From the IMG/VR virus record IMGVR_UViG_3300023172_000172, positions 1 to 25,887 of that record: a DNA stretch of 25,887 bases. The stretch is one strand, 5' to 3'. Below the pieces are notes generated by a model. It was not told the DNA's origin, made no database searches, and saw only the letters and a list, made by a program, of their open reading frames with translations. The stretch is from a virus (lineage: Duplodnaviria > Caudoviricetes). This document shows, one piece after another, positions 1,711 through 24,700 of the stretch (positions are counted from its first letter, which is position 1; every line of letters starts with the position of its first letter). A program made the translations under genes and the position numbers.

Positions 1711-4700
1711 TTATTTTTTATACCATGTTTTAGAGTTTGTAGGGGTACTATTGTAGCTCGGAGCATACCATATTTCGCCAGCTTGATTCACTATTATATC
1801 ATACCATCCCTTGCTTCCGGCAGTATTATCTGCATTTTTAAAAACCCTCTTGCCAGAACCATGTTCCCAAGTACCCAATGAACTCGAATTAGTTATAAAT
1901 GCTGGATCAAACCACAAGCCTTGCCCAGAAGTAGCCTTGTAAAAAGCAACCGTGAAGGTGCCATTGACGAAACTTGGATGATTAACAAAAACCCATTCTG
2001 GAGTTGTAGAAAAAATTTCAATGTAAACCCATAAACCGTCTGTAGAGAGTAGCTGAGTATAGATGTTTGGAGTTGAGCCGCTCCATTCAGGATAAAACCA
2101 ACCAAACGCATGGTTGGCATAAAACCAAGCTGGCACAGTTGCCATTCCATCTTCCGACTTAAGCAAATTTCTTGAACAATAAAAATGAGTAGGCCAATAG
2201 CGTAACACATTAAAAGAGGCGTCTGTATTTATCCATGTGTCATGTAGCCACCCATAGTTATATCCAGCAAGATTCGACCCTCTCTTTAAAACATTTGTCC
2301 ATCCAGATGAAATAGGAAAGTTTGTCTGAGATTGAGATTGATCTGAATTATCTATAACATTTTTTGCGCCACAAAAAACACCCTGAACAGAACCACCATC
2401 TATTTTATTTTGATAACCCGCTCCTATTACATTAGCTCCGTCACTACTTACGCTTAGATCGGGCATTGTATTTTGATAACCAGCAACTATAGCAGAAAAA
2501 TTGTCCCCAACCGAATTATTATAACCGTTTCCGATAAAAGAAAATCTTCCTGTTATATCATTATGTGCTCCGCCGACAATTGAAGAAGCGAGAGAATCTA
2601 CTTGATTTGGTCCAGTTGTTACTCGCGTGATATCATTATTATATCCACCTCCAATAAAAATAGCTTCTGGCTCTGGATTTTGCGTGCCGGTAAATGAGAT
2701 ACCTGCTTGAAAATTATCGCTTCTTCTACTATATGAATTAACGAAAGCTGTATTAAATTCAATTCTTCCTTGCGTTGCGCCAGGATATGGATTTGCATTA
2801 AACCTTATATATCTTCCACTATCACCAATAGTAAATAGTTGAGATTTTACATCTACTCCAGATTCAACACTAAATCTCATGTGGGAGTCAGCATCTCCTA
2901 TGTCAAATTGTATATTATTATTACCATGTTGATCATTTGCTGCAGATAATAAAAATCCAGGCGAAGAATAGTCGGCCCATGTTTTACCCGCACTCTTAAT
3001 AACCCCACCATCACCAGGATCGGGATTATTCGGATCGTCCCCAGGGCCTCTTCCCATTGTTAAGCTTCTTGTGATCATTGCATCTTCTGCAAGCAATAAT
3101 TTTGTAGCAACACTTTCAAATTGAGCACCAAATGTTTTCCATAAGTGGCCTGTTGGATCAGGGTTGCTTGTATTATAAGTAGCAGGGTCGTGACTTGTAT
3201 TTGTCTCCAGAGCAATATAATATGTTTGATCGGCCGTCCTGTATACTACATCTCCGCGTAAATTTTGAGTCGGAGAACCTGGGGCGTCATGAACTCCAAT
3301 ATAAGTGCTTGTAGAATTCCAAACCCCTCTATAAACAGGGCTTCTTCCTGTCGGACCAGCAGCCCCCTGAGCAACAAGACCTACAGAAACTGAGTGTTCC
3401 GTAGAAGTGCCATCCCCAGAAGAATATATTATAACAGATTCGTGCTCAGCTGTGTTGTCGCCCTGATGAATAATTGTATCAAATCCATACTTTATTGGAT
3501 TATCATGCCTATCTCCTACATCCAACGAAGCAAAAGCAATCTTTGCATTGGAGTCAAAATTATTAGGATCATAAATAAAACCACTAATATTATATCCAGT
3601 GAAATTATTCTGACCATCTGTTTCATATTCATCATATCCAAAAATTTGAACACCATTAGGAAAGGCCATTCTGAACCTTACGTCATCATGATTAATGCTG
3701 CTATTGTTATATCTTACTACAATATCAGAGCTTTGAGATAATGATGGAATATATGCCCCATCATCCCTTTCATCATACGTAAAAAATGCTGGCTCTGCAG
3801 TCATTGACATTACGGTAAATTCTCCGCCGTCACGCTGCTTAATATTTCCCTCAATTGTTAATTGGCCATTTTCGTAGTATAATTTTCCACCAGGATTCCC
3901 AGGAAAGTCTCGACCTTTAAACATGAAGCTTCCATTTCCGCTTATTACAAATCCAGCACCCGGATATCCATATCCATGATACCCAGTTCCACCACCCACA
4001 TATACAGGATCGCCGAATCCTACGCTTCTAATTTGTCCACTATTTTGATCGCCACCAACCTGAATATCTTGACCAATAATTTCCGCGGATCTAATTTTGT
4101 CTGCAGTTATATTATGTATTTTAGCATTAGTAATAGCTGCATTTTCTATGTGAGCAGTACCAATTGTCGCATTTGCGAAAGAGTGCCACATTGGTGACGC
4201 GATTCCATTTGCATTTCTTGCAATAATATCATCTCCATCACTAAGCACAGATGGTCTTCGACCATCATAGTCTGTATTTTTGTTCGCAGAAGGATCATTT
4301 GTATTACCCTCTCCTGCTGGATGATAATCTACCGTGGAATAATTACCGCTATATAAAATATTTCTTAATGGATTATTTGCATTTAAACTTAAAGGAGTTT
4401 CTTTTACAATTTTTATTTTATCTCCATTAGATGGAGAGAATGGTAAAGACACAGATAATTGAATTGTATTAGTTAAATCTGTATATGTGTTTATTTTTCT
4501 TTCTTGCCCTTGGAGTAATCCATCTTCAAATCGCACATAGTATTCTGAACCTGCATTGATGTCAGGAATGTTTCTTCCGTCTGTTGTATCGCTTCCAACA
4601 ATGACAAAGTTCGAAACAGATGGGGACAAGTCATCGATTGCAGAAGTAAATAGCGTTGTTTTTTGCCCTGGAGCTTCTAAACCAAGATGTCCACTTTGTT

Positions 4701-7700
4701 CTGGAGTAAGCCTACTTGCTTCCACCGCATAAGTATTACCCTTAAAATAAACATATTGATCACTAGTATCTCCAGGCCCTATCACAAAACCTATTCCACT
4801 TTTATACAAAAAGTGTCTATCCCAAGATATTTCGCCAGCACCAGGAGTATTACTCTCAAAAGGATTATTTGGAACTAGCGCTAGGGTATTAGGAAATGTT
4901 TGAGTAATGCTTTGCTCAAAATCAGAAATATCAGTAGGTGCTTGTTGACCTAATATAAGCTCAAGCCCCTCCACATTCTCATTAGTAAGATTTGCCTGAC
5001 CAGTAAACGGACCTTTATTTCCAGCCATATCAACTGCCCTAATCCAGAAATACCTCTTGTCATTGGTTGTCCCATTATGAGTAACTTGAATTATTGGCGA
5101 CATAGCAGATACATTTAGCACATTTGTCGCATTCGTAATACCAGAAGCGAAATCCTGTTCTTCTGTGGGTATTGGTCCTAGACTTTCTATATCTCCAGTA
5201 ATTCTTCTATAACCAACTAAATTTTCATCTTGATTTATCGCTCTATTTTGAGCCCCTAAATACAAATAATTATCTTCCGATTGCCACACCTCATAATGGC
5301 TAACATCATTTGGAATGCTATCTAAAAATCCACCTGTCCTTGAGTTATTTGAACTAACTTCACCAGCATTAAGCTCAAAAAATTCGGTATGAGGAACCTC
5401 CCAATTCAAGAAGTAATTAGTAAAAGCAGTATCTCCATGGAAATTATATACCGGTCCAGGAATTGCATCTTGCGTAGTAGAAAACACTGGCCCATTATAT
5501 CCATTCGGATTCTTGTTATTATAATTCAGAGGATAAATCAAAACCAACTCAGGAGAACCTTGATTATCTACTAAATCAAATAAGTCGCCGCTACCAAAAT
5601 GGTCAAACGGCAATAATTTATAATAATATCCAGTGATTTGATTTCCTTGTCCTTGAATAAACGGAATTGGAGGAGAATCAGTAATTGAGTTAAAATTATC
5701 AAAAACTTCAGAAACAAAAGTCGGAGCGTTTGCCCCAGGCAATCCATCAGAATCTAAAATACTAAAGTTTGGCGTGCTAGATCTATATAATTGAAGTTTA
5801 GTTACGGTCTCCCTATCTTCATTAGCATACCTAAAATTAAATGTAGTTTGTGTGGTTCTACTTAAACTATCTACCTGAAAACCGTTCGCCAAAATACTTG
5901 GCTCTCGATTAAATCCAACAATCGATCTAGTACTTAATACATTACCCTCATTATCAAGTATTCCCAGCTCAAGACCAACACTTCTTTTTCCGCTTTGAGG
6001 AATACCAATATGTTTAAAAATAACATTATCATAACCAGTATTTAATTCCCAAAAAGGTAGCCATTGAGAAGAATAGTAGTCCGAATAAATTTGTTGATTA
6101 ATGTTTGAAATATTTGTCAGGGGAGCGCCAGTTGGATTGCTTTCTAAGCATTGGTATACTGCTCCATTACTATATACAAGATCCCCTTCATTGTGACTTG
6201 TTTGAAAATCTGTGCCACCGTAATCAGCCGCCCAATATGTTTGGTCTGCATAATTTGGCGTTCTTACTCCGTTCGCGGATCCCAGTCCATTTTCAATTAC
6301 TCCGCTCCATATATTATTTTCGTATATAACTAGGCTTCCTTCAGAATATCTTTGTTGATCGGAATAGTTTGTTATCTGAAAATCATACGCAGGAACCACT
6401 TCAACATATCCTGTATAATTAGAAGGATTTTGAGATAACCAATGATTATATCCAGTAGAAGGCAATACCTCATCACTGGGATTTATATTTTGAAGAGCTT
6501 TATATATCCCACAGTTTACATCAGTAAATATACCTTGAGGTAACCAATGCAACGATCCAGTGCTTGGCAATATAGAATCCTGAGTAGTTTGATCTTCTAT
6601 TGATTTATATATATATCCACTATATAAAACAGTATCTCCAATGTTATACTGGGTTCCAGTTTTGTATATCGTTGAATTTATTGATGGCGCAATAACAAGC
6701 GATCCAAGTGTGTAATTCAAACCCTCATTAAAAACGCCACTAATATTACTTGCATCTGGACCAACCAACTGCCCATCCGATCCAGTCGGAATATACAAAG
6801 AGTTATTATATTCAAAAACATCAGCATAAGGCAGTCCATCCCTATAAACATAATTATTTGAAACATCCCACAAATCATATGAAGGCCTAATATAATCAGC
6901 CGGAGAACTTCCTGTTTTTGCGGTATATAAAGAGAGACCCGTTACAACATTCTGCCCAGATAAATAATTTCCATAATTTCTATATACCTCATAATTGGGA
7001 TAGCCACCCGTTTTATACAATTCATTATTAATTTCTCTTGTATACTCAAATGTATCAAAAATTTTCGTAGCAGGAAGATCTTCAGATAACTCCTGAATTC
7101 CTTCGTTGTTTAGAGAGCTTCTACTATTAAAGCCTTCTGTTATTCCACTTAAAAATTCTTTCGTATCACTATCAAAAAGAGATCCGCTAATTCCAAGTAT
7201 GCTAGGCCTGTCGTTAGGAGATACAAGAAATTTGTATTGATTTAAATCAACTAGATTACCATTTTGATCAGTTACATTCCATCTAAAAATTAAATCATCT
7301 TCTCTTTCTATAAAAGACAAATTATCGATCTTTACATTAGCTAAAAAGGGAAACAAATCCGATCCCGGATCTCCAGCCTTGACAAGCCCAGTTTCCGTTA
7401 AATTATATGTATACCCAGTTCCATATCCATCTCGCGGAATAAAAGAGTAATAATATTTTCGACCCCAAATTTGATCAAATGAAGTATTATTTAAACTAAC
7501 AACTCTTTCTTGTGTCGCATATTCTACTGCCGGCCCCAATTCACTCCATAAAGGCGCTCCATCAGCGGGAGTTGTACCGACATAAGAAATAGCGTCATAA
7601 GACTGAGTACATACATATATATTATCTTGATAATTAACATAATCTCCTTCAGTAAAATAAGGCCTATGCTTAGTCCAATCAGGCGCCTCATTTGTTTTCT

Positions 7701-8628
7701 TATAATATTCTATACTATTAAATATATTACTCGGATCATATATATCATGATCTTCTGAAATATTTACAGAATTAATTATTACATCTTGAAAATCAGTATC
7801 ACTATGTCCCCATGCTAGTCCAAATTTCGATCCAACAAGAGAGTAGCTTACTTCGTCTGCTTCTGGAATATAATTTGTTCCGGTTATTACGCCCGTAGCA
7901 GTTCTTCCGAATGCGTCATGAGAAATAACTTCCAGCGCAAGTGTTCTGTCTAAATTTAATTCACTAAAGGTCAACTCTGGCAATGTAAATGAAAAGCCAG
8001 TATAATGATCCATCATTGCAGAAACATTTGCAGTATTTAATATTGACTGCAAACCTTCATTCAGGGGTGAATCTAATTGACTAGAAGATATTATATTTCC
8101 ATTTTCTGTATTTCTTAATTGTAAAGAAAAGTGAGATAAAAAAGTATCACTTAATAATTCATTACCCAATACTTCACCTTCTTTTGCGTGTCCGACAGGC
8201 GGAATCAATCTCCAATCAACTTCAACCACCCTATTAACGTATTCTGAATCTACAGCTAATATATTCGACCCGGATTCTGGATTAGCTTCTATTGTACTGC
8301 CTATTTTTGCATCTTCGGGCAAATTAGATATTCTAATATCCCCAAATGTAAACGTATCATCAAAGCTCGGAGGACTTACGCTAATCGCTTCTTCAACAAA
8401 AGCAGATCGAACACCTATATCACTTACAGCAAAAATTCTTATTTTAAAATTACCGTAATTACCCCTCAAGGAAACCACTTTGTGCGCTGTTTCACCTTCT
8501 GCGTAGACTAGGTCAGACCCCTTGCCGAGCTTATACTGAAACGAATAGTTATCCGATGTTCCTATAATTTCATAGCTTGCGCTAATATCATTAACATCAA
8601 ATTGAATACCTATTGCTGTGGATAACAT
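1711..8628 (-). CDS. Giant central tail fibre / receptor-binding protein (C-terminal continuation of gpJ)
   Basis: FN3-like units (KIRIFAVSDIGVRS; YYYSFIPRDGYG; YYYKLLPFDHFG; RYFWIRAVDMAGNKGPF), CBM5/12-like Y..GD.V.Y....Y repeats, a trimeric beta-helix pattern (ATIGTAHIENAAITNAKIHNITADKI), GG.YNN beta-roll repeats and a Trp-rich C-terminus. It lies directly after the gpJ gene. Confidence 0.8.
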   Translation of the reverse strand: MLSTAIGIQFDVNDISASYEIIGTSDNYSFQYKLGKGSDLVYAEGETAHKVVSLRGNYGNFKIRIFAVSDIGVRSAFVEEAISVSPPSFDDTFTFGDIRISNLPEDAKIGSTIEANPESGSNILAVDSEYVNRVVEVDWRLIPPVGHAKEGEVLGNELLSDTFLSHFSLQLRNTENGNIISSSQLDSPLNEGLQSILNTANVSAMMDHYTGFSFTLPELTFSELNLDRTLALEVISHDAFGRTATGVITGTNYIPEADEVSYSLVGSKFGLAWGHSDTDFQDVIINSVNISEDHDIYDPSNIFNSIEYYKKTNEAPDWTKHRPYFTEGDYVNYQDNIYVCTQSYDAISYVGTTPADGAPLWSELGPAVEYATQERVVSLNNTSFDQIWGRKYYYSFIPRDGYGTGYTYNLTETGLVKAGDPGSDLFPFLANVKIDNLSFIEREDDLIFRWNVTDQNGNLVDLNQYKFLVSPNDRPSILGISGSLFDSDTKEFLSGITEGFNSRSSLNNEGIQELSEDLPATKIFDTFEYTREINNELYKTGGYPNYEVYRNYGNYLSGQNVVTGLSLYTAKTGSSPADYIRPSYDLWDVSNNYVYRDGLPYADVFEYNNSLYIPTGSDGQLVGPDASNISGVFNEGLNYTLGSLVIAPSINSTIYKTGTQYNIGDTVLYSGYIYKSIEDQTTQDSILPSTGSLHWLPQGIFTDVNCGIYKALQNINPSDEVLPSTGYNHWLSQNPSNYTGYVEVVPAYDFQITNYSDQQRYSEGSLVIYENNIWSGVIENGLGSANGVRTPNYADQTYWAADYGGTDFQTSHNEGDLVYSNGAVYQCLESNPTGAPLTNISNINQQIYSDYYSSQWLPFWELNTGYDNVIFKHIGIPQSGKRSVGLELGILDNEGNVLSTRSIVGFNREPSILANGFQVDSLSRTTQTTFNFRYANEDRETVTKLQLYRSSTPNFSILDSDGLPGANAPTFVSEVFDNFNSITDSPPIPFIQGQGNQITGYYYKLLPFDHFGSGDLFDLVDNQGSPELVLIYPLNYNNKNPNGYNGPVFSTTQDAIPGPVYNFHGDTAFTNYFLNWEVPHTEFFELNAGEVSSNNSRTGGFLDSIPNDVSHYEVWQSEDNYLYLGAQNRAINQDENLVGYRRITGDIESLGPIPTEEQDFASGITNATNVLNVSAMSPIIQVTHNGTTNDKRYFWIRAVDMAGNKGPFTGQANLTNENVEGLELILGQQAPTDISDFEQSITQTFPNTLALVPNNPFESNTPGAGEISWDRHFLYKSGIGFVIGPGDTSDQYVYFKGNTYAVEASRLTPEQSGHLGLEAPGQKTTLFTSAIDDLSPSVSNFVIVGSDTTDGRNIPDINAGSEYYVRFEDGLLQGQERKINTYTDLTNTIQLSVSLPFSPSNGDKIKIVKETPLSLNANNPLRNILYSGNYSTVDYHPAGEGNTNDPSANKNTDYDGRRPSVLSDGDDIIARNANGIASPMWHSFANATIGTAHIENAAITNAKIHNITADKIRSAEIIGQDIQVGGDQNSGQIRSVGFGDPVYVGGGTGYHGYGYPGAGFVISGNGSFMFKGRDFPGNPGGKLYYENGQLTIEGNIKQRDGGEFTVMSMTAEPAFFTYDERDDGAYIPSLSQSSDIVVRYNNSSINHDDVRFRMAFPNGVQIFGYDEYETDGQNNFTGYNISGFIYDPNNFDSNAKIAFASLDVGDRHDNPIKYGFDTIIHQGDNTAEHESVIIYSSGDGTSTEHSVSVGLVAQGAAGPTGRSPVYRGVWNSTSTYIGVHDAPGSPTQNLRGDVVYRTADQTYYIALETNTSHDPATYNTSNPDPTGHLWKTFGAQFESVATKLLLAEDAMITRSLTMGRGPGDDPNNPDPGDGGVIKSAGKTWADYSSPGFLLSAANDQHGNNNIQFDIGDADSHMRFSVESGVDVKSQLFTIGDSGRYIRFNANPYPGATQGRIEFNTAFVNSYSRRSDNFQAGISFTGTQNPEPEAIFIGGGYNNDITRVTTGPNQVDSLASSIVGGAHNDITGRFSFIGNGYNNSVGDNFSAIVAGYQNTMPDLSVSSDGANVIGAGYQNKIDGGSVQGVFCGAKNVIDNSDQSQSQTNFPISSGWTNVLKRGSNLAGYNYGWLHDTWINTDASFNVLRYWPTHFYCSRNLLKSEDGMATVPAWFYANHAFGWFYPEWSGSTPNIYTQLLSTDGLWVYIEIFSTTPEWVFVNHPSFVNGTFTVAFYKATSGQGLWFDPAFITNSSSLGTWEHGSGKRVFKNADNTAGSKGWYDIIVNQAGEIWYAPSYNSTPTNSKTWYKK

Positions 8629-8632
8629 TTTC

Positions 8633-11600
8633 TTATGCAGTTAAATCTGTTAATATTAAATCGGTTGGAGCTTCTGGAATCGCCATATCTGCCTGAGGAG
8701 GAATTGGAATCACAGGTCTTCTGACTATACTTTTTTTATCAACTGAATCGAATTTAGCTTGAACATATTCTAAACCAGTAACCTCATATTTATTTTCATC
8801 CATTTCTTTTACACTCATAGTTCTAAATAATTGCCCCTCAAGAATAGAAGAGCTTCCATCCACAGCTTTTTGAATAAAGAGTATATTCCCCCCAGTAACA
8901 GAGAACCCACTTGTTGACGCAGCTGATGAAGAATTAATTAACTCAAAAACTGATTTTGATATTTTAATCAACCTCCATTTTGGCGGAGTACTAGTCCATT
9001 TATTTCCACTGTAGGTATAGGAATTATTTATTGCGGAAGCGCCCGTTCCTGAAGCACCATTAATATATACAAATTGCCCATCTGGAATTTCTACATTACT
9101 AGATGAATCTAAAGTAATTCTAACAGATTGTACATTTTGTTTTGCGTCATTTGCGGAGACGACAGAATAAGAAGATATATTTATATTTTTAGAATCGGGA
9201 TGACTTTCTAATCTTTGATATGGATTTACTGTTGATTGGTTTGGTGGAGTAGAAGATGTCGACACCTTACCTTGCCTCGTAGTAACTTCTTCCTGAAGAG
9301 CAACATAATAACCAACTCCAGAAGCGACTTGTACAATAACATACTTTGCATTATTAATTGAGTATTTCTCGCCAACAGATTTCGATGTATCAGTGTCCCA
9401 AATAAATAATTCGACAAGAATATTAAAACTATCATAAAGCGGGCTGACCCATCCGTTAGCAGTAGATGAATTTTCATGAATTTTCGAAAAATACCAAAAT
9501 TGATCCTTTATGCCCTCTGCTGTATAAATCCAGCCCAGATCAGCATCATCACGACCATAAAACCAAATATTGTTGGTTAGATTATTAAGATAATCTTCGG
9601 AAAAATAAATCCACCCAAAGTTGATCACGTAGGTCCATGGACCCTTTGGTACTATATTACCCAACCAATAAGAATGTTTCCATCCACTACCATCACCATA
9701 ATCTAAAGTAACCCCAAAAACATCTTGTTCTGTCGCAGTTAAGCCAGAACCCGAACTTAAAGCCACAATGCCTTTTGCAGACCATGTAGATCCAATACTG
9801 ATTTGATCCAACGCCTCTTTGGTTCTTTGCTCGTCTTGAGGAAGAACATAATGCAGCCCTCCTTCGTTTCCAAGAATATCAAATCCATTATTATAGACTT
9901 CAACAGCTGACCCAGAAGAAGTCTCAGAGACCTGAAAAGTATGCTTTGTGACATTAATTATATAATATGCCCGCTCGTCATATTTTGAAGGGTTCAGTCC
10001 TCCAGGAAGAATGCCGTTTGAGTTAAATGCAACCCTATCGCCATTATCAAAATTATGATTAAAAGATACAAATAAATTTTGACCCAAGTCCACCTCGATG
10101 GGTATCTTTAATTGCAGATCCACTGCTCTTGATTTTTGTCCTTGCGGCCCTTTTTTTCCTTCATAGTCAGAATAATCAATTCGACAATTAAACCTTATAA
10201 TTTGAGGGGTAAAAACAGACTCAATTTCTGCGTCTTGATCCTTATCAGATTTCTCAAAGGGCGCCCTCAAAGATACATTCTCTTCTGTTTCATTAGACAT
10301 GCCCACACAAACCGCAAGCTCTACGCTTGAAACAAAAGGCTCTTTTGTTAGACTTTTATCTAATAATATATACGGATTATCTACCTCTATAACACCATCA
10401 CTTTGCAGGTTTCCGCTCCCATCGGTTATTGTTCTTGTATAATATTGTTTATCTTGAATATCTAAAACCCTTCCGCTTTTTAATTTCCCCGCTCTCGCTT
10501 CATCAGAAACTTCGAATATTGCCCCGGGAAATAAATAGGACGCTTCTGCACCCGCCTGAAACGAAACTGTTTCTATTTCTAACTGAGTGGTAAAAAGTAT
10601 CCACTTCGCTAAACGCCTGGCTTGGCTTTGAGAAGTGATACCAAATCCCATTGTTTCTTCTTCTTTATACCCAAATCTTTGTATTGCCTCAGCATCTTCT
10701 TCTACAATTACGTCTGGCTTGAAGTTATTGTCCTTATTATTATAACGAACCAAAGATGTTGTTACCTTCTGATTCTTACTCACGCCATTATAATTAAATC
10801 CTTCAATCCCTACATTTGAATTAGTAAACAATTGAACCGGATTCTTATATGAATCCTGTACAGCAACTATTTTTCCGCCGCTATAAGTACTAATTCCCCT
10901 AAAAATAGACGCGAAATTATTTATAATCTGAAGCGCTTCATTTCTATCTGTTAGATATAAATTAGCAGTGAATCTTGGCTCTACCAATGGATGATTCAAC
11001 TGTACGGCACACGCACCAACTGTGATATTTGAAGAATTTGTAGCGGATAAATTTTTAAAACTAGGGCCACTTACAGTAATTGTTTGATTTTCTGCATCAG
11101 AAGAAAGTATAACCCTTTCCTCAATTAATATCTCCCCCTCTCTGAATGCGGAGTCTTTTTTTGCGCGAATTCCGCCCAGTGTATTTGTAGATATAAAAAA
11201 TGCCATCTTTTTTCCAGCAAAAGATTGCTTGTCGCCAAACTCTTTTTTAAAATCAGGAATCTGTTCAGTTCTCGTAACATTAAGCGCTGAATCCAAGTAA
11301 TGCCCAGAAGAATCGATTTTTATTTGAAAACTCTCCTCCCCAGAATTTAATGTTTCAAAATTCCTAGGTAGGCCAGAGCTAGTCTCAAAAGGATAATCTG
11401 TCTCGACGAGTTGGTCGCAGTATTTTGCAATTTTATATAACTGCCATTTATCAATATTTTCTTCATTAAGTCCGAATTTACCAACCCCATATCTGGCATT
11501 ATGCAATAAGTCGTAATAAATCCAAGCAGGATTATCGCTCCAATATTTATCCTCATCACTTATTGAATGAACAGAAGCTAGAGCATCAGCCTGTCCTTTA

Positions 11601-13210
11601 AATAATCCATTCCAAGGACCATCATATTTTCTAGTAACTGGATCATAATTACTAGGAATAAGAATTTTTTTCATTTTTACATGATATGACCTCTCTGGAA
11701 TTTGACTAAAATTTTTACTATCAAATTTTATTTTACATATTGCACTATGAGGATATAATAAATCTTCAATTACTGACTCTGTAACAGAAATAAAATTTAG
11801 AACCTTAGTTTTTGCAATCCCCCCGAGAGTGCCACCTCGAGCGGTGGAGTCCAATTCATTACTCAATTTAACCAATTTAAATGTAACTCCTTTTGACTTT
11901 ATCCTTGGCACAATATAGTCAACAACAATATCAAATTCATATTCATCAGTAGCGATCCCTCTAACAATAAAAGAAGTTTCTCCATTTTTCATCAAGCCGG
12001 TGCCTGGGCTATCAGAATTATACGCAGGAATATCAACTTCTGCCCCTTGACTCCGAGTCTTTATCTTGCAGCCGGATGAGCTAGATAATATATTATGCTC
12101 TTCATCATCCTTGAGTATATTTACTGCGAAAGATATTGATGTCGGACCATTACTACCATCATCATTTTGAATTTGTAACGCAACGCCCAAATTTAATGTC
12201 ACCCTTGACACATTCTCATTAGCCACAAAATGAGTTAGTATTTTTGCATTATTTTTTATTGCGTCATTAAAATCTGCTCGACTCTCTTTCTTTTCAGGGT
12301 TATTTACATATGGCCCAGCTCCATAAAATTTTGTTCCATATTCAAGAGTCATGGTTGTTTCGGCAGATAAAACTCTAGACTCTTCTTCTTTACCGAGCTG
12401 TATTTCGGGCAACTCTCCATTTTCATTTAGTATAAAATTTAACGAACCTTCCCCAGAGCCATCACTGTCGGTATTTTTTATCTGTACATTATTCAAGAAT
12501 ATGCCCTCTCTTATATCTCCACCAGATATTGGTCCGCCATTTATATTTACGAAACCTTCTATTGGTCCCTCTGATAACAATTCCATGTATTCGATGTCTG
12601 AATAAGATTCAAGAGTATTAGCATTTTCCTTGACAGATCTATAAGTTTTTTTATTTTGAGCTATATTAGTTGAACCTATTTTTAATCTTCCGTAACCTAA
12701 CGGAACAGCAACCCCTTGATTTGTTCTATTTTCTGAGCCCCTCAGCAAAAAAGATTTTGTTGTTGTGGGCTCACCTCTTTTTGGCGGCTTAAAGAGAGAC
12801 TTCATTATTGCACCAACAACAAAAGAAATTGCAACCGCAGCAACTATCTTACCTAATAATTTCAATCCGGTAATTTTTCCTGCTGCATCCAGTACAAAAA
12901 ATAGTGGCATGAGGGGACCCGAGCCTTGAACACGCGGACATATATGAATTTCTTTTTTATCTTGTATTAAATCAATTTTTTCTTTATTGATTGAGTGTTC
13001 GACAAGGTCTTCTTTTGAATTGATCTTTTTAGGATCTTTTGTAAAAATATAGTATTCTACCCCTTTTTTTTCTGTATCAATTAAATACTCAAGAAACCCA
13101 CTATTATTAGACTCCAAGGCATGAAAAGCTTCGGCAGGAGTGCGCACGGCAAGGTTCCACTTTTCGCCAAAGCGTTTACCTAATTTACCATGTAAATATA
13201 CCGTCTTCAC
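8633..13210 (-). CDS. Fusion of gpI-like ubiquitin-fold tail assembly domain and gpJ-like tail tip/host-specificity protein
   Basis: The N-terminus VYLHGKLGKRFG...AVRTPAEAFHAL...IHICPRVQGSG, a hydrophobic stretch and QGVAVPLGYGRLKIGS are gpI-like. gpJ motifs follow: LLSEGPIEG, LYPHSA, FSQIPERSY, IPSNYDPVTRKYDGPWNGLFK, WSDNPAWIYYDLL...RYG, IDKWQLYKIAKYCDQLV, EPRFTAN, GITSQSQARRLAKWIL, SGRV, YEVTGLEY. GTG start with AAGGA upstream. Confidence 0.9.
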   Translation of the reverse strand: MKTVYLHGKLGKRFGEKWNLAVRTPAEAFHALESNNSGFLEYLIDTEKKGVEYYIFTKDPKKINSKEDLVEHSINKEKIDLIQDKKEIHICPRVQGSGPLMPLFFVLDAAGKITGLKLLGKIVAAVAISFVVGAIMKSLFKPPKRGEPTTTKSFLLRGSENRTNQGVAVPLGYGRLKIGSTNIAQNKKTYRSVKENANTLESYSDIEYMELLSEGPIEGFVNINGGPISGGDIREGIFLNNVQIKNTDSDGSGEGSLNFILNENGELPEIQLGKEEESRVLSAETTMTLEYGTKFYGAGPYVNNPEKKESRADFNDAIKNNAKILTHFVANENVSRVTLNLGVALQIQNDDGSNGPTSISFAVNILKDDEEHNILSSSSGCKIKTRSQGAEVDIPAYNSDSPGTGLMKNGETSFIVRGIATDEYEFDIVVDYIVPRIKSKGVTFKLVKLSNELDSTARGGTLGGIAKTKVLNFISVTESVIEDLLYPHSAICKIKFDSKNFSQIPERSYHVKMKKILIPSNYDPVTRKYDGPWNGLFKGQADALASVHSISDEDKYWSDNPAWIYYDLLHNARYGVGKFGLNEENIDKWQLYKIAKYCDQLVETDYPFETSSGLPRNFETLNSGEESFQIKIDSSGHYLDSALNVTRTEQIPDFKKEFGDKQSFAGKKMAFFISTNTLGGIRAKKDSAFREGEILIEERVILSSDAENQTITVSGPSFKNLSATNSSNITVGACAVQLNHPLVEPRFTANLYLTDRNEALQIINNFASIFRGISTYSGGKIVAVQDSYKNPVQLFTNSNVGIEGFNYNGVSKNQKVTTSLVRYNNKDNNFKPDVIVEEDAEAIQRFGYKEEETMGFGITSQSQARRLAKWILFTTQLEIETVSFQAGAEASYLFPGAIFEVSDEARAGKLKSGRVLDIQDKQYYTRTITDGSGNLQSDGVIEVDNPYILLDKSLTKEPFVSSVELAVCVGMSNETEENVSLRAPFEKSDKDQDAEIESVFTPQIIRFNCRIDYSDYEGKKGPQGQKSRAVDLQLKIPIEVDLGQNLFVSFNHNFDNGDRVAFNSNGILPGGLNPSKYDERAYYIINVTKHTFQVSETSSGSAVEVYNNGFDILGNEGGLHYVLPQDEQRTKEALDQISIGSTWSAKGIVALSSGSGLTATEQDVFGVTLDYGDGSGWKHSYWLGNIVPKGPWTYVINFGWIYFSEDYLNNLTNNIWFYGRDDADLGWIYTAEGIKDQFWYFSKIHENSSTANGWVSPLYDSFNILVELFIWDTDTSKSVGEKYSINNAKYVIVQVASGVGYYVALQEEVTTRQGKVSTSSTPPNQSTVNPYQRLESHPDSKNINISSYSVVSANDAKQNVQSVRITLDSSSNVEIPDGQFVYINGASGTGASAINNSYTYSGNKWTSTPPKWRLIKISKSVFELINSSSAASTSGFSVTGGNILFIQKAVDGSSSILEGQLFRTMSVKEMDENKYEVTGLEYVQAKFDSVDKKSIVRRPVIPIPPQADMAIPEAPTDLILTDLTA

Positions 13211-18723: not shown

Positions 18724-21700
18724 TTACTCGCTTAGTAATCCGCCAGGTCTTTGTTCTTCAATTATAACCGCAACTACTTGCGCCTTGACTTTTTCTGCCA
18801 ATTGATTTTCTCTGGATTGATTCTCTGATGCATCTTTTGGATTTTGCCCTGAATTTTGACCGCTAGAATCTTTAGACTGTCCGCCAGATCGATCAACGTT
18901 AATTGATATATTAATATTATTTGTATTACCCGAAGAAGTTGTTGATTCGGATTGTTCTTTGAGCGGGGTAACCGCGCCACCTTGGTTAAATTTTCCTAAA
19001 TTTATTGAATCAAGCAAGGGTTTACCTAATTGACGAGCGCTACTTGCACGAATAACATATTCTCCCTCGCTGAGCATTGCCGGAATCTGGTCGATACCAG
19101 ATTTTCCAGAAATGTATCCACCGCTAGCATATTTATGAATTGGGCCGCCCCTATATCTGCCACTCAAGAATTTGCTAAAATACGAAGAAGCGTCCAAATT
19201 TTCAGCGGCCAATAAATGAGCATTTTTCGAGAAAAAAGAATCTTGAGAAACATCAATTCTTGCAGCTTTATTCATTCCAGACGCCCCTACGGAGTCAGCA
19301 ATCATTGCTTTTTTCGACATAAAATCACCAAACTTGTCAGCCCCAGCGGCTAATCCAAAACTAAGTGCTGTGCCCAAAATCATTTGCATTAAAGATCTCT
19401 TTTTGGCTTTTTTCTCGGCGGCCTTTCTCATTCTTTCCTGAATAATCCCGCGAGTATATTGAGCATCTTCTTGAAGTCCGACATTTCCAGCTTGGCCACT
19501 ATAGAAAAATCCAGACATTGCTTCCGATTGATATCTTCTTCCTGTAGCATATCCTTCGGCTCCTCCAAAATTTGCGGCAAGCGCGGAACCAGGCTTTCCT
19601 CCGTTTGAGTAACCAGGAATTTTTCCTCCGGCATTTAAAGAATGCATGAATCCACCACCGTATTTCTTTACTGCGTTTCGACTCATGACATATTCTCCAT
19701 TAGAAACCATTGCAGGAACTTGACCTCCTCGAGAAAATCCTATAGCGCCTACAATATCCCCCGCGGCTTTTTGAAGCATTGCACTTTGTATTGCCTGAAG
19801 AAAGTTTATTGCGATATTTCTCAAAACATCTCCCATGTCTTCAGCCCCATTTATACCAGCCTGCATAGCCTCTGCGAGACCATCTCTTAATTTCAATGGT
19901 AATTGTTCGCCTAATTGATAATCAATGGCGTCAGTTTGTTCTCTAACTTTTTTAAATCCATCTGCAATCCCACCGCCAAAGGTTTCGTGAGCTCTGCGAT
20001 TAGCGATTCTTTGTTTTTCTAAATTTATTAAGGTTTGTACGTTTGATATTTGTTTTTCGTATTCTGCAGTTATATTCGCTGATTGTTGTGCTAGTTCGTC
20101 CCGCCGCTCCTTATCTTTTCCTGTTGTGCCAACAATCTTTGCGTACTCTTCTGCTATTTTATTTTGTTTCTCAAGCAGCTCCTCGTTTAGGGCTTGTATT
20201 TTTAATTCTGCTTGAATATCTTTTTCCATTAATTGAAAATCTTCTCTTTCTCTGGCTGTTTGATACCCAGGGCCCTGAGCAGTCAATCTCTGCGCCGAAC
20301 CCAGCTCGTAATCTAACTCTCTCATTCTTCGGGCAGATCGAGCTGCTTCTGCACCCATTCGATGGTCTCTTTGCAATTGATTGAGTGCATCAGCCCTTTG
20401 CGCAAGAGTTAGACTTATGCCGTCTTCTGCTTTCTGTGTCGCTTCGGCATTTTCCTTTTGTTTTATTGCAAGATCTATAAGATTTTGTCTTTTTTCCCTT
20501 TCCTGATCTAATAACCTATTTAGAATTTTTTGTATTTCACTATTATCCTTTGCCTCCGTAATCATTTCATCAAGCGTATCTATTAACTTTTGCGTGTCCA
20601 TTTCTAACACTTTATTAGAGACATTCTGAAGAGCTCCTTCCCCTTCTTCCCCAAACTTTGTTTTAAACAATCTTTGAACCTCTGGATTTTCTTTTATTTG
20701 ACTTAATAACCCGAGTCTAAGTCCTTCGTCCGCAGAACCCACATTTAAGGCATATTTTTTATTTATTTCTGCTGCTGCAATTTGACCTCGCTTTGTAGCC
20801 TTTTGGGCTTCAGTCATGGATTCCGGAGAAGTTTTAAGTTGTTTTTTTAAGTTATCTATTTTTTCATCTTCGAGTTTAGCTATTTCCAATTGATTCATTG
20901 CGGCGCGTTGCTGTGCTATTTGCATTACTTTTGCCATATCCAGCTCAACGATATAGCCTTTTCTTTTTTCCGTAAGGGCATTTACTTCTTGCTCTGCTAG
21001 TTTTAATATATCTTTGTATGCTTTTGCGATTGCCGTAGGGGTTGCTTTATCGATTTGTGTTTTTAGTTCGGCCGGAGAAAAGTAAGCTTCCGTACCCGCT
21101 TCGATTTTAGCTCCAGCTTCAGTGAAAGTGTCCGACATCGCGGGTGCATAAATCTTTTTGTCTTGAGGTAACATATCCAATGCATCTCTTAAAGCCTGAG
21201 GCCTAAGTTTTGTACCCATTTGAGCTAAGATTTGATCTTCAATTCTTTTTTTGATATCCTTTTCTGGTCTTACTCTATATCCGCCGCCAACCTCTTTCAA
21301 AATATGTTTCTTCAAGCCCGCTTGGCCAACAATACTACCTCCTACGTTACTTTCTTTCAATAATTGCTGCAGGCGCTCAGCTGTATATTGAGCTGCTTCA
21401 GAGCGCTTTTTTGGATCTCCTCCCATATACTTGTCGCTCTCCAATATTCCCGACTGTTTAATCAAGTCGCCTACATTGATTCCTGACTGCTCGAGTAGTC
21501 TACTTTTAAATTCTGCTCCTGCAGCAGTGTTTGGTTTTAAATCCAAACCAAATCCGTCTCTAGTTGTTAGCCTATTAAAATCCTCTATACCTTCAAAAAC
21601 CAAGGATCTTTGTTGCAGTCGGCCACTTTGACCCTTAAGTGGGTCAAAGGCAATCTGCCTATTTTGATCAAAATACCCCGAATTTTTAAAAGCCTGCGCC

Positions 21701-24700
21701 GTTGATTGGGCAAATTTAGATCCCACTTGAGCAGATTCTTCTCTAGCAGCCTTTGCAGATTCTTTTAGCGCTTTTGTATTTTCTTCGGTTGCGGTTTGCC
21801 AACCCATAAAAGCTCCAGCTAGTCCGCCAACAACGGTTCCTATTGGGCCGAGAAATGATCCCATCATGGCTCCAGTTGAAGCTTGAGTGAATGCGCTCCC
21901 AGCAGCATACATAGTTTGATTACCTCCTTGGGCACCCACGCCACCCGCATACTGTTGTATCATTCCACCGATCATTGGTAATCCAATCATCGCCATTGTA
22001 CCCATGCCCGAAAATCTTCCCCGCGCTGCAGCACCGCGTGCTTGACTTGTAGCCACAACTTCTTTTTGCTTTGCTTCAATTAGCTTTTGTTGTGTGTCAT
22101 TTAAAGCTAGCTGCAACTGAGTACCCCTCCTTGCCGCGGAGCGGTTAAGCCTTCCCTGGGCGTTAGCCTCGACCATTATTCTATTATTTGTTTCTATTAC
22201 CCTTTGAAGCTTTTTTTCTCGATCCGTATTGATTTTTACTTGTTTTGCTGCCTCGTCTCTTGCTTCTATATATTTATCTCGCTGACCTTGATCCGCTCGA
22301 AAACCCGCCATCCAATCCTTGATAGCGTAATTTGGCACATATCCATTTGCACCAAATACATCGCGCAAGCCGTTCGGTTCGTCTTTTGTATTGGTTACGC
22401 CGAGGCCGAGTGGATTACCTCTACTCATTAATGCATTATGAGAACCAACTCTAATTTGCGAAACAGGAACTCCAGCTGCTTTTTCGCGGCCTATTGCATC
22501 GCTTAGTGGATCGGCAAAGTTGGGAATATAACCATCAGCCATTAAAACAGCCTGATTACCTTTTCCCACGCCAAGTCTAATAGCATTTCTTCCGGTCAAC
22601 TGCTGAGCGGTCTTTAGTTTGGGGGCGCTGCCTCTCGCGCCTCTATAAATTATCTCCTTGGCAATTTTAGCAGACATAGACGCCTGAAGCTCCCTGCCGT
22701 CAGATACTTTATAATCTGCTCGAGGAGCCATGGGTCCATATAATTTTTTTAACTCAGGCGTAGCCATTCTTACATCAAAATCGCCGCCCATATAATCTCG
22801 TTCAGTAGATTCGGTTTTTAGTCTTCTAGATAGAGCTTCTTCAAAAACTGCTCCATACAATCCACTGATTGCTCCCTTAGCTCCACTCCTACCCCCTTTA
22901 GGTCCCAGAAATTCTTTTACAATTTGCGCTCCTGCAGCGTCCGGAATTTTCGCTATATCATTACCTAGATTTAATTGATTAGCAACTTTTACAGTCTGAC
23001 TACCAATAACGTCACCAAGCTCGGCTAAGGCTTGAGGGACGACTCGGCCTTCACTATCTTTTGCGGACTTAGTATACCCGCCTCGTTTTACCCCCAACAT
23101 ATTAAACAAAATATTTTTATTTATCTTTTGGCCAAACACAGGCTTACCACCTTTAGCGGAAGGAGCAACACCTTTTCCTCCACCTGATAATTTTTTACCA
23201 AACCCCTCAAAAGGAATAAGCATTGTTGCTATATGTCGAGCGTCGATTGTTTCAGGATTAAAATTAGGAATATAACCACTTCCCGCATACGGATCAAATC
23301 CATGAACACTTCCAAATGCTTTTTGATAATTCTTGCCCGCCTTGCTAGACAGCGGAGGCATAATTGCAGGCTGAGTAAATCCTGCAAAATTCTTGACTTT
23401 TTCCGAGCTATTATATATTACCGAGCCTTCACCAGGCATATTCATTGATCGAATATTTCCTGCGGCATATCCTCCCTTTGCTGCTTGCGCTCGTTCGGGA
23501 TGTGCAAAATTTGGTATATGACCTGTTGCTCGACCACGCCTTGGAGTCAGAGAGGCTCCGTATCCCTTTGAATAAAGAGTGCTTGCTGTTCTTTTTGCAA
23601 TAGAATCAAGCATTTGAGCTTCGACCACCTGAGCTTGCAATAAACTTAAAATTATTTTTTCTTTTTCTGTTCGAGAAATATCAGTTCTTAACATTTCTTT
23701 ACTTAGTGCAGAATTTTGTCCAAACAAATTAACCAAAGATGTTTGAATCGCTTTTTGCTTTTGAGCCTCGCTAGTTACGCCTATAAGAGATGTTAAACTT
23801 TCTTTTGCGAATTGAGCTGCTTTTAAAAACAATTTTCCAAAAACCACAGTAAGTACAACCAAGCCTGGCCCAGTTATAATATTACCCAAACCCTTTAAAA
23901 ATCCGTTTGCAAACTTACCCCCAGCACTTTCTCCATCTCCAAGCATTGCGCTTGCACCTTCTGCAATAGATTTTACTGTATTTAGTATTTTTTCCATTCC
24001 AGGGGCAAGCATAATTTCTCCAATTTGCGCAGAAACATCTTTTAATGCTAACCCTGTTTCAGTTGCCATTGCGGACATTGTACCCCTTAGTTGCTCATTT
24101 TTTTGAATGGCTTCATTTGTTGCGCTAGAAGAAATTTGTGTGGCGTTTGCAAGTATACCATTCTGTTTTGCGGCGTCACTCAGAACGGCCTTTAAAATAT
24201 TGATTTGGAAAACTCCACCAACTGTTTGCGCGATTTGAGCCTGTTGCGCAGCAGATAAGCCGTCGAATGAATTTGCGAGATCAGTTAAAATTCTTTTAGC
24301 GCCTAAAGTATTTCCCTCCAAGTCTCTTACTGCAATACCTAAATTTTCTAATTGATTCAAAGTATCGGTACGACCTATTCTTGTAAAAATTGTCTTGAAT
24401 GAGTTACCAATAACCTTTCCGCCTCGAGCAGTTTGTTGTTGGGCCGCAGTCACCAAACCTATCAATTCATCAATACTTACCCCCGCACTTTTTGCGGCTT
24501 GACCAGTTCGAGCAATAGCATCAGCGAAGTCTTCTGCGCTTACCGCAAATTGAACGTCAACTGCGGCAAATTTACTAACCAATTGAGTAGTATCTTTAAT
24601 TTGGTTACCGTATGTATTCATGGCGGCCGTTAAAGCTTTAACTGCCTCAGCCGAATCCATGCCGGTCAATCGAGTAAGAATCAATGCGTCACGAGTTCTT

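Follow-up and report, generated by a model that had tools for sequence, protein, structure and literature searches.

A recombination-exchanged cassette with a nuclease-style residue signature in the tape measure protein of a clade of uncultured phages

The usual view of tape measure proteins (TMPs) is that they measure the tail and form a channel, and the activities described within them, in the accessible part of the literature, are cell-wall hydrolase motifs. In the available portion of their survey of toxin domains, Zhang et al. (2012; PMC3482391) list short ordered motifs for the Tox-REase toxins, those of REase-1/6 being "E, D, ExK, Q" and those of Tox-REase-7 "GxxxE, IxD, ExK, Q". The locus considered here joins a TMP to a residue signature of this order. 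It lies in a 25.9-kb fragment (25,887 nucleotides, hereafter the window) of the uncultured virus record IMGVR_UViG_3300023172_000172, with a completeness estimate of 18%, and consists of a 242-residue segment of the TMP encoded on the minus strand, to which all coordinates below refer. The TMP gene (P0001, 18724..25146) is an open reading frame (ORF) of 2140 codons, and the segment, occupying aa 630-871 (22534..23259), is described here by a profile family, DNA breakpoints and an AlphaFold2 model. It is the stretch between the second and third GYIPNF motifs in which the original prediction had placed a PD-(D/E)xK nuclease-like domain, and the four peptides on which that prediction leaned are all present. 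The assignment of the ORF to the TMP of a siphovirus-type tail follows from a match to PF10145 (TP901 type; aa 120-311, 1.1e-29, 104 bits against a Pfam cut-off of 33.2), from matches to tape-measure families of the PHROGs (best 4.4e-54) and from the lambda-type genes downstream; its length and its position before the tail tip genes are likewise those of a TMP.

The segment is a real, new and constrained cargo domain. Its charged site is constrained, nuclease-style and probably catalytic. The reading that we prefer, tentatively and with somewhat less than even confidence, is that the segment constitutes a separate cargo domain in a recombination-swappable slot of the TMP. It would probably be a phosphodiesterase that depends on metal, of the PD-(D/E)xK (restriction-endonuclease-like) kind, and would enter the host cell together with the TMP at DNA ejection.

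Conserved residues of the cassette

The conserved core of the cassette (aa 751-835, 22642..22896) holds G758, G765, F768, E769, D791, D811, K813, S823 and K827. Along it lie the peptides GLYGAVFEEAL (aa 762-772, 22831-22863), GGDFDVR (aa 787-793, 22768-22788), RADYKVS (aa 809-815, 22702-22722) and ASMSAKIAKEI (aa 822-832, 22651-22683). A word-indexed search returned eight other TMPs in which the motifs are kept at identities down to 28%, and viral contigs added more distant relatives, ExK variants included. An exhaustive profile search yielded 228 cluster representatives (clusters defined at 50% identity) at E<=1e-3 and 153 at E<=1e-10, essentially all of them TMPs, with the domain nearly always located at about aa 600-900 of a protein of 1400-3000 aa. 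The column counts given below for this allele type (type A) cover 156 of the 228 representatives. The TMP N-terminus is common to 127 of these 156; of the 29 without it, 27 are records truncated at the N-terminal end. PF10145 was found in 14 of 16 long members scanned. The domain is nearly confined to the TMPs of a large clade of uncultured phages, and its copies fall into two or more homologous types that have diverged very far.

Within type A, G765 (22852-22854) and F768 are invariant (156/156 each), and G758, D791 and K813 are each kept in 155/156. The helix glutamate that had been singled out at 22840..22842 is E769, the first Glu of FEE and the Glu of GxxxE, a position held by 149 E and 7 D; its neighbour E770 is variable. 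In GGDFDVR it is the second Asp, D791 (22774..22776), that is conserved; D789 is found in only 127/156. The (D/E)xK motif (D811-Y812-K813, 22708..22716) has D in 134 and E in 21 of the representatives at position 811, and is separated from D791 by 22-33 residues across members. The following helix adds a near-invariant lysine to the proposed order, K827 (22666..22668), which is kept in 151/156 and spaced 14 residues after K813 in 136/156. The full aligned signature [ED]...D...[DE]xK, an acidic helix residue followed by Asp and (D/E)xK, is present in 154/156 representatives, the exceptions being one truncated record and one with Thr in place of D791. The order of residues on which the original prediction rested is therefore among the most conserved features of the family, and the loss of these residues in homologues, which had been named as a possible refutation, is not what was found. 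The description of the first half of the segment as basic and rich in Lys and Gly also holds (aa 601-700 contain 18 G, 15 K+R and 6 D+E), and the model suggests that this half is more than a linker, as it includes confidently predicted strands at model residues 17-24 and 55-63.

Purifying selection on the cassette is strong when alleles of one type are compared, the ratio of nonsynonymous to synonymous divergence (dN/dS) being 0.05-0.11. In the core (aa 751-835), the most constrained part measured, the ratio falls to 0.009-0.034; the corresponding value for the TMP N-terminus is 0.06-0.095. As dS is near or above 1, these ratios are rough.

Allele types and exchange at the motifs

The N-terminus of the TMP (aa 1-540) has 1161 relatives at E<=1e-20, and the best 120 of these are 80-100% identical to it. 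Among the best 120, 44 match the type A profile, and the other 76 carry in the same slot a cassette of the same size; these alternative cassettes form a single cluster, here called type B. An hhalign comparison of the two types gave a probability of 99.3% (E 2.8e-20) over 122 columns at 11% identity, and type B is therefore homologous to type A. The part aligned is the conserved core, with FE paired to FE, FD to FD, DxK to ExK and K to K. None of the 76 type B cassettes lacks any of the six residues (the G, the E, the D, the E and K of ExK, and the helix K), and the ordered signature as a whole is likewise present in 76/76. In a set of 79 viral loci, type A was found in 31 and type B in 42, and the remaining 6 had neither.

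The cassette is set between short repeated motifs. GHIPNF motif 1 (aa 542-547, 23506-23523) and the conserved module A that follows it (together aa 542-623, 23278..23523) are 80-97% identical in 15/15 relatives, whatever cassette is present. GYIPNF motif 2 (aa 624-629, 23260-23277) forms the upstream boundary of the cassette and GYIPNF motif 3 (aa 872-877, 22516-22533) the downstream boundary; beyond them, conserved module C (aa 878-934), which with GYVPNY motif 4 (aa 935-940, 22327-22344) spans 22327..22515, is 77-100% identical in the 15 relatives compared. Motifs of the G[FY][IV]PN[FY] type stand on both sides of the domain in 103/156 relatives.

In 11 of the 15 relatives the flanks are 80-100% identical to the window TMP and the cassette only 14-45%, and the remaining four, with the same allele type, have cassettes that are 53-93% identical. 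The relative P0042 illustrates the former case, with protein identities of 100% over aa 1-540, 97% over aa 548-623, 21/45/33% in the cassette and 100% over aa 878-934. At the DNA level, identity to locus L018 is 96% before the cassette and 100% in motif 2, drops to 47-52% over nt 1888-2613, and returns to 94% in motif 3 and 93% beyond. Such a sharp, motif-bounded drop and recovery identifies the segment as a recombination cassette. Synonymous divergence from L018 is 0.15-0.16 in the N-terminus and module A and 0.40 in the 57-codon module C, and is saturated in the cassette; it follows that the cassette arrived through recombination and that the exchange broke at the sequences encoding the motifs. 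The flank and cassette identities, together with the L018 breakpoints, thus reproduce the arrangement of polymorphic toxins, in which a conserved delivery part is joined to a recombining variable part. Independently of any function, the family offers sharp cassette boundaries at a conserved six-residue motif, and six residues kept at 11% identity.

As to the motif itself, G[FY/H][IV]PN[FY] could serve as a cleavage site, as a module-docking strand or as a mere recombination anchor; a full-text literature search with its six-residue spellings returned only an unrelated match. The window TMP has four copies and most relatives have 2-11, with none in 24/156 and one in 4/156. The flanking modules at aa 548-623 (23278-23505) and aa 878-934 (22345-22515) belong to no known family and resemble each other by eye, sharing E[RK]..A..G....IR ... 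N, and VTNT[KR]DEPNGL is conserved in module C, likewise in P0025, P0063, P0087 and P0118. In the more distant TMPs of L077 and L078, motif-bounded slots (ORF residues 632-776 and 776-928) have other contents; one of these cassettes contains RGKGYGRKL, which may correspond to motif A of GNAT acetyltransferases. Locus L075 has long low-complexity repeats of the GSKNQ/PPQERQ kind.

Predicted structure and competing explanations

The AlphaFold2 model based on a 46-sequence alignment has a mean predicted local distance difference test score (pLDDT) of 73.7 and a predicted template modelling score of 0.66, with pLDDT of 81-93 over model residues 160-210 (model residue n being TMP residue n + 623); an alignment of seven sequences gave an unusable model (pLDDT 35.9). 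Strands are predicted at 10-12, 17-24 (pLDDT about 93), 29-31 and 55-63, followed by helices at 82-101 and 116-124 and by a helix at 131-152 that would hold G135, G142, F145 and E146. Directly after D168 the model places a two-residue strand (169-170), then a helix (174-180), then a strand at 186-189 with the (D/E)xK motif (D188, K190), and finally helices at 195-217 (with K204) and 220-231. The modelled succession of a helix with the Glu, a strand at the Asp, a second strand with (D/E)xK and a helix with the Lys is the local order that a PD-(D/E)xK core would require, in which Glu lies on helix alpha1, Asp at strand beta2 and (D/E)xK on strand beta3, with helix alpha2 next.

Several results weigh against the preferred reading of a PD-(D/E)xK-kind phosphodiesterase. 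In the model the Glu helix leads to the Asp with no intervening strand, so that beta1 is not predicted, and the long strands (17-24 and 55-63) are N-terminal. The strands of the Asp and of (D/E)xK, which form a hairpin in the classical fold, are separated by helix 174-180. In Foldseek searches the model had no significant match, the best E being 1.5 in the PDB and 0.29 in BFVD, and no PD-(D/E)xK match was among the matches listed from Foldseek against these two databases or from a wide VIA-align search, so that the structural check proposed for the domain, AlphaFold followed by Foldseek, did not bear it out. Sequence comparisons were equally unproductive. In Pfam, 46 members searched at E<=10 gave only 17 unrelated single-member matches and no match to any Tox-REase model, Tox-REase-7 (PF15649) included, and the segment alone and nine members gave no relevant family; the PHROGs returned nothing for the segment alone and only unrelated single-member matches for the 46 members; the PDB, searched by sequence and with two profiles, contained nothing below E 0.3. 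When the core was aligned by hhalign to two Tox-REase-7 domains (from G011 and G359, the two genomes with PF15649 among 401 of one phylum), the probability was 0.24%, the two-sequence template being thin. A Pfam scan found PF15650 in neither the window nor the control genomes. An ESM Atlas feature search with the window domain placed Tox-REase-9, -3, -7 and -5 and CdiA-EC869-like clusters nearest (0.75-0.81), a lead only, and one that failed to recur with the divergent member L011, for which there was no usable match. No immunity gene, of the kind that follows the C-terminal toxin in polymorphic toxin systems, is known for the cassette, and none was searched for; the loci compared end within the TMP gene. 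In addition, an active nuclease made late in infection would have to spare the phage's own DNA. With no profile match and an hhalign probability of this order, membership in a known REase family is not established. Of the proposed kinship with the restriction-endonuclease-like superfamily, the motif order and the toxin-style motif set stand, while a match in fold, Pfam, PHROGs, PDB or Tox-REase-7 is lacking.

The lack of any match, PD-(D/E)xK included, is also what would be expected if the cassette were an enzyme other than a nuclease, with a new fold and a site of Glu, Asp, Asp(Glu), Lys and Lys that would carry out, for example, hydrolysis or transfer on envelope polymers, lipids or nucleotides at entry. 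Catalysis of some kind is suggested by charged residues that are invariant and strongly constrained, and peptidoglycan hydrolase motifs are known in TMPs (PMC1796659, in the part available). This explanation is nevertheless unlikely. No similarity to hydrolase or transferase families was found in Pfam, PHROGs or the PDB, and the order and spacing GxxxE / D / (D/E)xK / polar residue at +14 is the classical nuclease pattern, as given in the accessible portion of the toxin survey (PMC3482391). Further, a wall hydrolase acting on a conserved substrate would offer no obvious cause for deep allelic divergence and cassette exchange.

The same divergence and exchange may be explained without catalysis, as the swapping of deeply divergent alleles between near-identical phages is expected of a host-interaction surface. 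On such an account the cassette would be a structural or host-factor-binding module, for docking to an inner-membrane channel protein, as a tail plug, or as the part recognised by host exclusion or sensor proteins, and its conserved charges would serve to stabilise the fold, through salt bridges in the interior or through bound metal. It is consistent with this that no enzyme family matches, and that Avs18 immunity senses a helical TMP segment (PMC13581612, in its accessible part). However, at 11% identity six residues are fixed, and five of these are of kinds common in active sites, which exceeds the usual demand of fold stability; the variable parts are without positive selection within an allele type (dN/dS 0.05-0.11). 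A non-catalytic role is slightly less likely than a non-nuclease enzyme.

A nucleotidyltransferase of the Pol-beta kind is very improbable. Here the Gly-rich helix start would take the part of G[GS], while the DxD pair would be supplied by D789-x-D791 and a third carboxylate by D811; the helix separating the strands would then fit, as would the beta-alpha-beta order predicted around the acidic residues. Foldseek returned rows for Pla1, CdnE, CdnD, DncV, MiD51 and poly(A) polymerase (E 1.5-7.7, TM about 0.1), but these are at noise level (probability 0.01-0.03), and no nucleotidyltransferase was in the VIA-align list. In Pol-beta nucleotidyltransferases, G[GS] is followed by a DxD pair on one strand, with a usual Gly-to-Asp spacing of 9-13 residues; that of the cassette is about 31, and the GAKGA stretch, or Gly-rich motif, is missing from type B. 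What defeats the reading is D789, which would open the DxD pair: Asp stands there in 127/156 type A cassettes and in none of type B (0/76). As TMPs carry wall hydrolases, a lysozyme-like site (helix Glu and hairpin Asp) was considered as well; it would leave two invariant lysines unexplained and found no support, the matches listed from Foldseek and VIA-align for the model including none that is lysozyme-like and, apart from the noise-level rows above, no nucleotidyltransferase. That the motif arose by chance in a filler or linker region of the TMP is scarcely credible, for although the pattern carries little weight in a single sequence, as a stricter expression (GxxxE, 15-45 residues, hydrophobic-D, 12-40 residues, [DE]xK) matches 6/77 shuffled cassettes beside 74/77 real ones, and although the seven-sequence model was so poor, chance is ruled out by conservation in 154/156 and 76/76 and is opposed by a core dN/dS of about 0.01-0.03 and by the scores of the larger model.

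Genomic setting and comparison with known systems

Downstream of the TMP gene lie two ORFs without a family match, then lambda-type M-like, L, K (JAB) and I-J genes, and further downstream a fibre gene and an ORF related to the S74 chaperone. The equivalents of lambda tail assembly protein I and central fibre protein J are fused in a single 1525-aa ORF (8633-13210), the protein I part of which is weak in Pfam and matches PHROG 32 at 2.8e-31. The 2305-aa fibre-like protein (1711-8628) has a CBM5/12 carbohydrate-binding motif, and the 207-aa ORF after it (1080-1703) matches, in its C-terminal part, the S74 intramolecular chaperone and many tail-fibre C-termini. The TMP has one hydrophobic stretch, at aa 417-447. 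At its C-terminus (18724-19300), a PAM[VL]S[NE]GEYV-type stretch occurs twice within about aa 1830-2060, and PHROG 13338 is matched in two stretches. The C-terminal end is 49-80% identical in 14 relatives that reach it, the long middle part being 18-49% identical; P0005 (1525 aa), which does not extend there, was left out of this comparison. In two very long family members, helix-hairpin-helix DNA-binding motifs appear far downstream in the TMP, each just below the cut-off (P0107 aa 2701-2751, HHH_3, 26.9 bits against 27; P0147 aa 2543-2564, HHH, 20.8 bits against 24).

A tblastn search of 50,697 phage records with TMP aa 548-934 gave no match, and the TMP N-terminus had in phage records only matches below 60% identity, those among the matches listed being at about 26-29% (the Lactococcus 949 group and Bacillus phage Stahl). 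Two complete relatives are 154 and 140 kb in length, with direct terminal repeats. The source names of the close TMPs include Tara samples and metagenome-assembled genomes (MAGs) labelled Bacteroidetes and Crocinitomicaceae, and the setting thus includes marine samples. Species-representative genomes gave one match to the TMP N-terminus, on a contig of a "permissive" Coraliomargarita MAG bin.

Under the preferred reading of a phosphodiesterase carried into the host, the four charged residues would make up a metal site of carboxylates and lysine at which phosphodiester bonds are cut. A few copies of the domain per virion, one for each TMP chain, would reach the cytoplasm just before the DNA, where the target may be host or competitor nucleic acid, and the deep allelic diversity may stem from conflict with host-encoded inhibitors or sensors. 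A nuclease-type domain of this sort in a TMP would represent a new class of virion-delivered effector, acting before phage gene expression, and would add to PD-(D/E)xK a large unannotated family, or else show that the signature also occurs on a fold not seen before; as a site for loading cargo into phage tails, the slot between the motifs would be a natural one. A broader proposal, possible and somewhat doubtful, is that the TMP of this abundant clade of large marine siphophages is a polymorphic effector-delivery scaffold with motif-marked, recombination-ready slots, the main slot of which would be loaded with interchangeable alleles of a new nuclease superfamily that are injected at few copies per virion ahead of the genome. 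Phages would then have their own counterpart of the Rhs/CdiA polymorphic toxins, and its driving force would be conflict with inhibitors or sensors of the host.

Full-text searching of the literature turned up, among the matches listed, no account of a TMP with a nuclease in it, and no match for Tox-REase in a TMP context. The nearest described systems can nonetheless be compared, each as far as the accessible portion of its source extends. To the toxins carrying Tox-REase-1 to -10 (PMC3482391) the cassette is likened by its ordered motifs, G765xxxE769, F-D791, (D/E)811xK813 and K827, the last standing at the position of the toxins' Q, and in that both are small domains borne by a large delivery protein and diverge extremely in sequence while keeping certain residues, here putatively catalytic ones. 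It differs from Tox-REase-7 in the distance from Asp to ExK, which is about 10 residues there (two sequences, by eye) and 22-33 in the cassette, with a helix between. It also differs from the toxins in placement, which is C-terminal in their case; the cassette is internal to its carrier (aa 630-871 of 2140), and a C-terminal placement is therefore not seen here. The carrier, too, is another, namely a phage TMP, and the words "tape measure" do not occur in the first 300,000 characters of that article.

The peptidoglycan hydrolase motif in the TMP of mycobacteriophage TM4 (PMC1796659) is alike in being an extra module of a TMP that acts at infection and not in tail measuring. However, the TM4 module is a cell-wall hydrolase with recognisable relatives, whereas the domain described here resembles no known family, bears a signature of nuclease style, and is bounded by motifs and exchanged as a cassette. 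The MuF-fused toxins (PMC3482391), for which packaging in phage heads is predicted, resemble it in that a toxin-like domain is attached to a virion protein, with predicted delivery by the particle. In that system the carrier is a head protein and the toxins are C-terminal and of many folds, whereas the cassettes described here belong to one superfamily and occupy an internal slot of the TMP in nearly all members.

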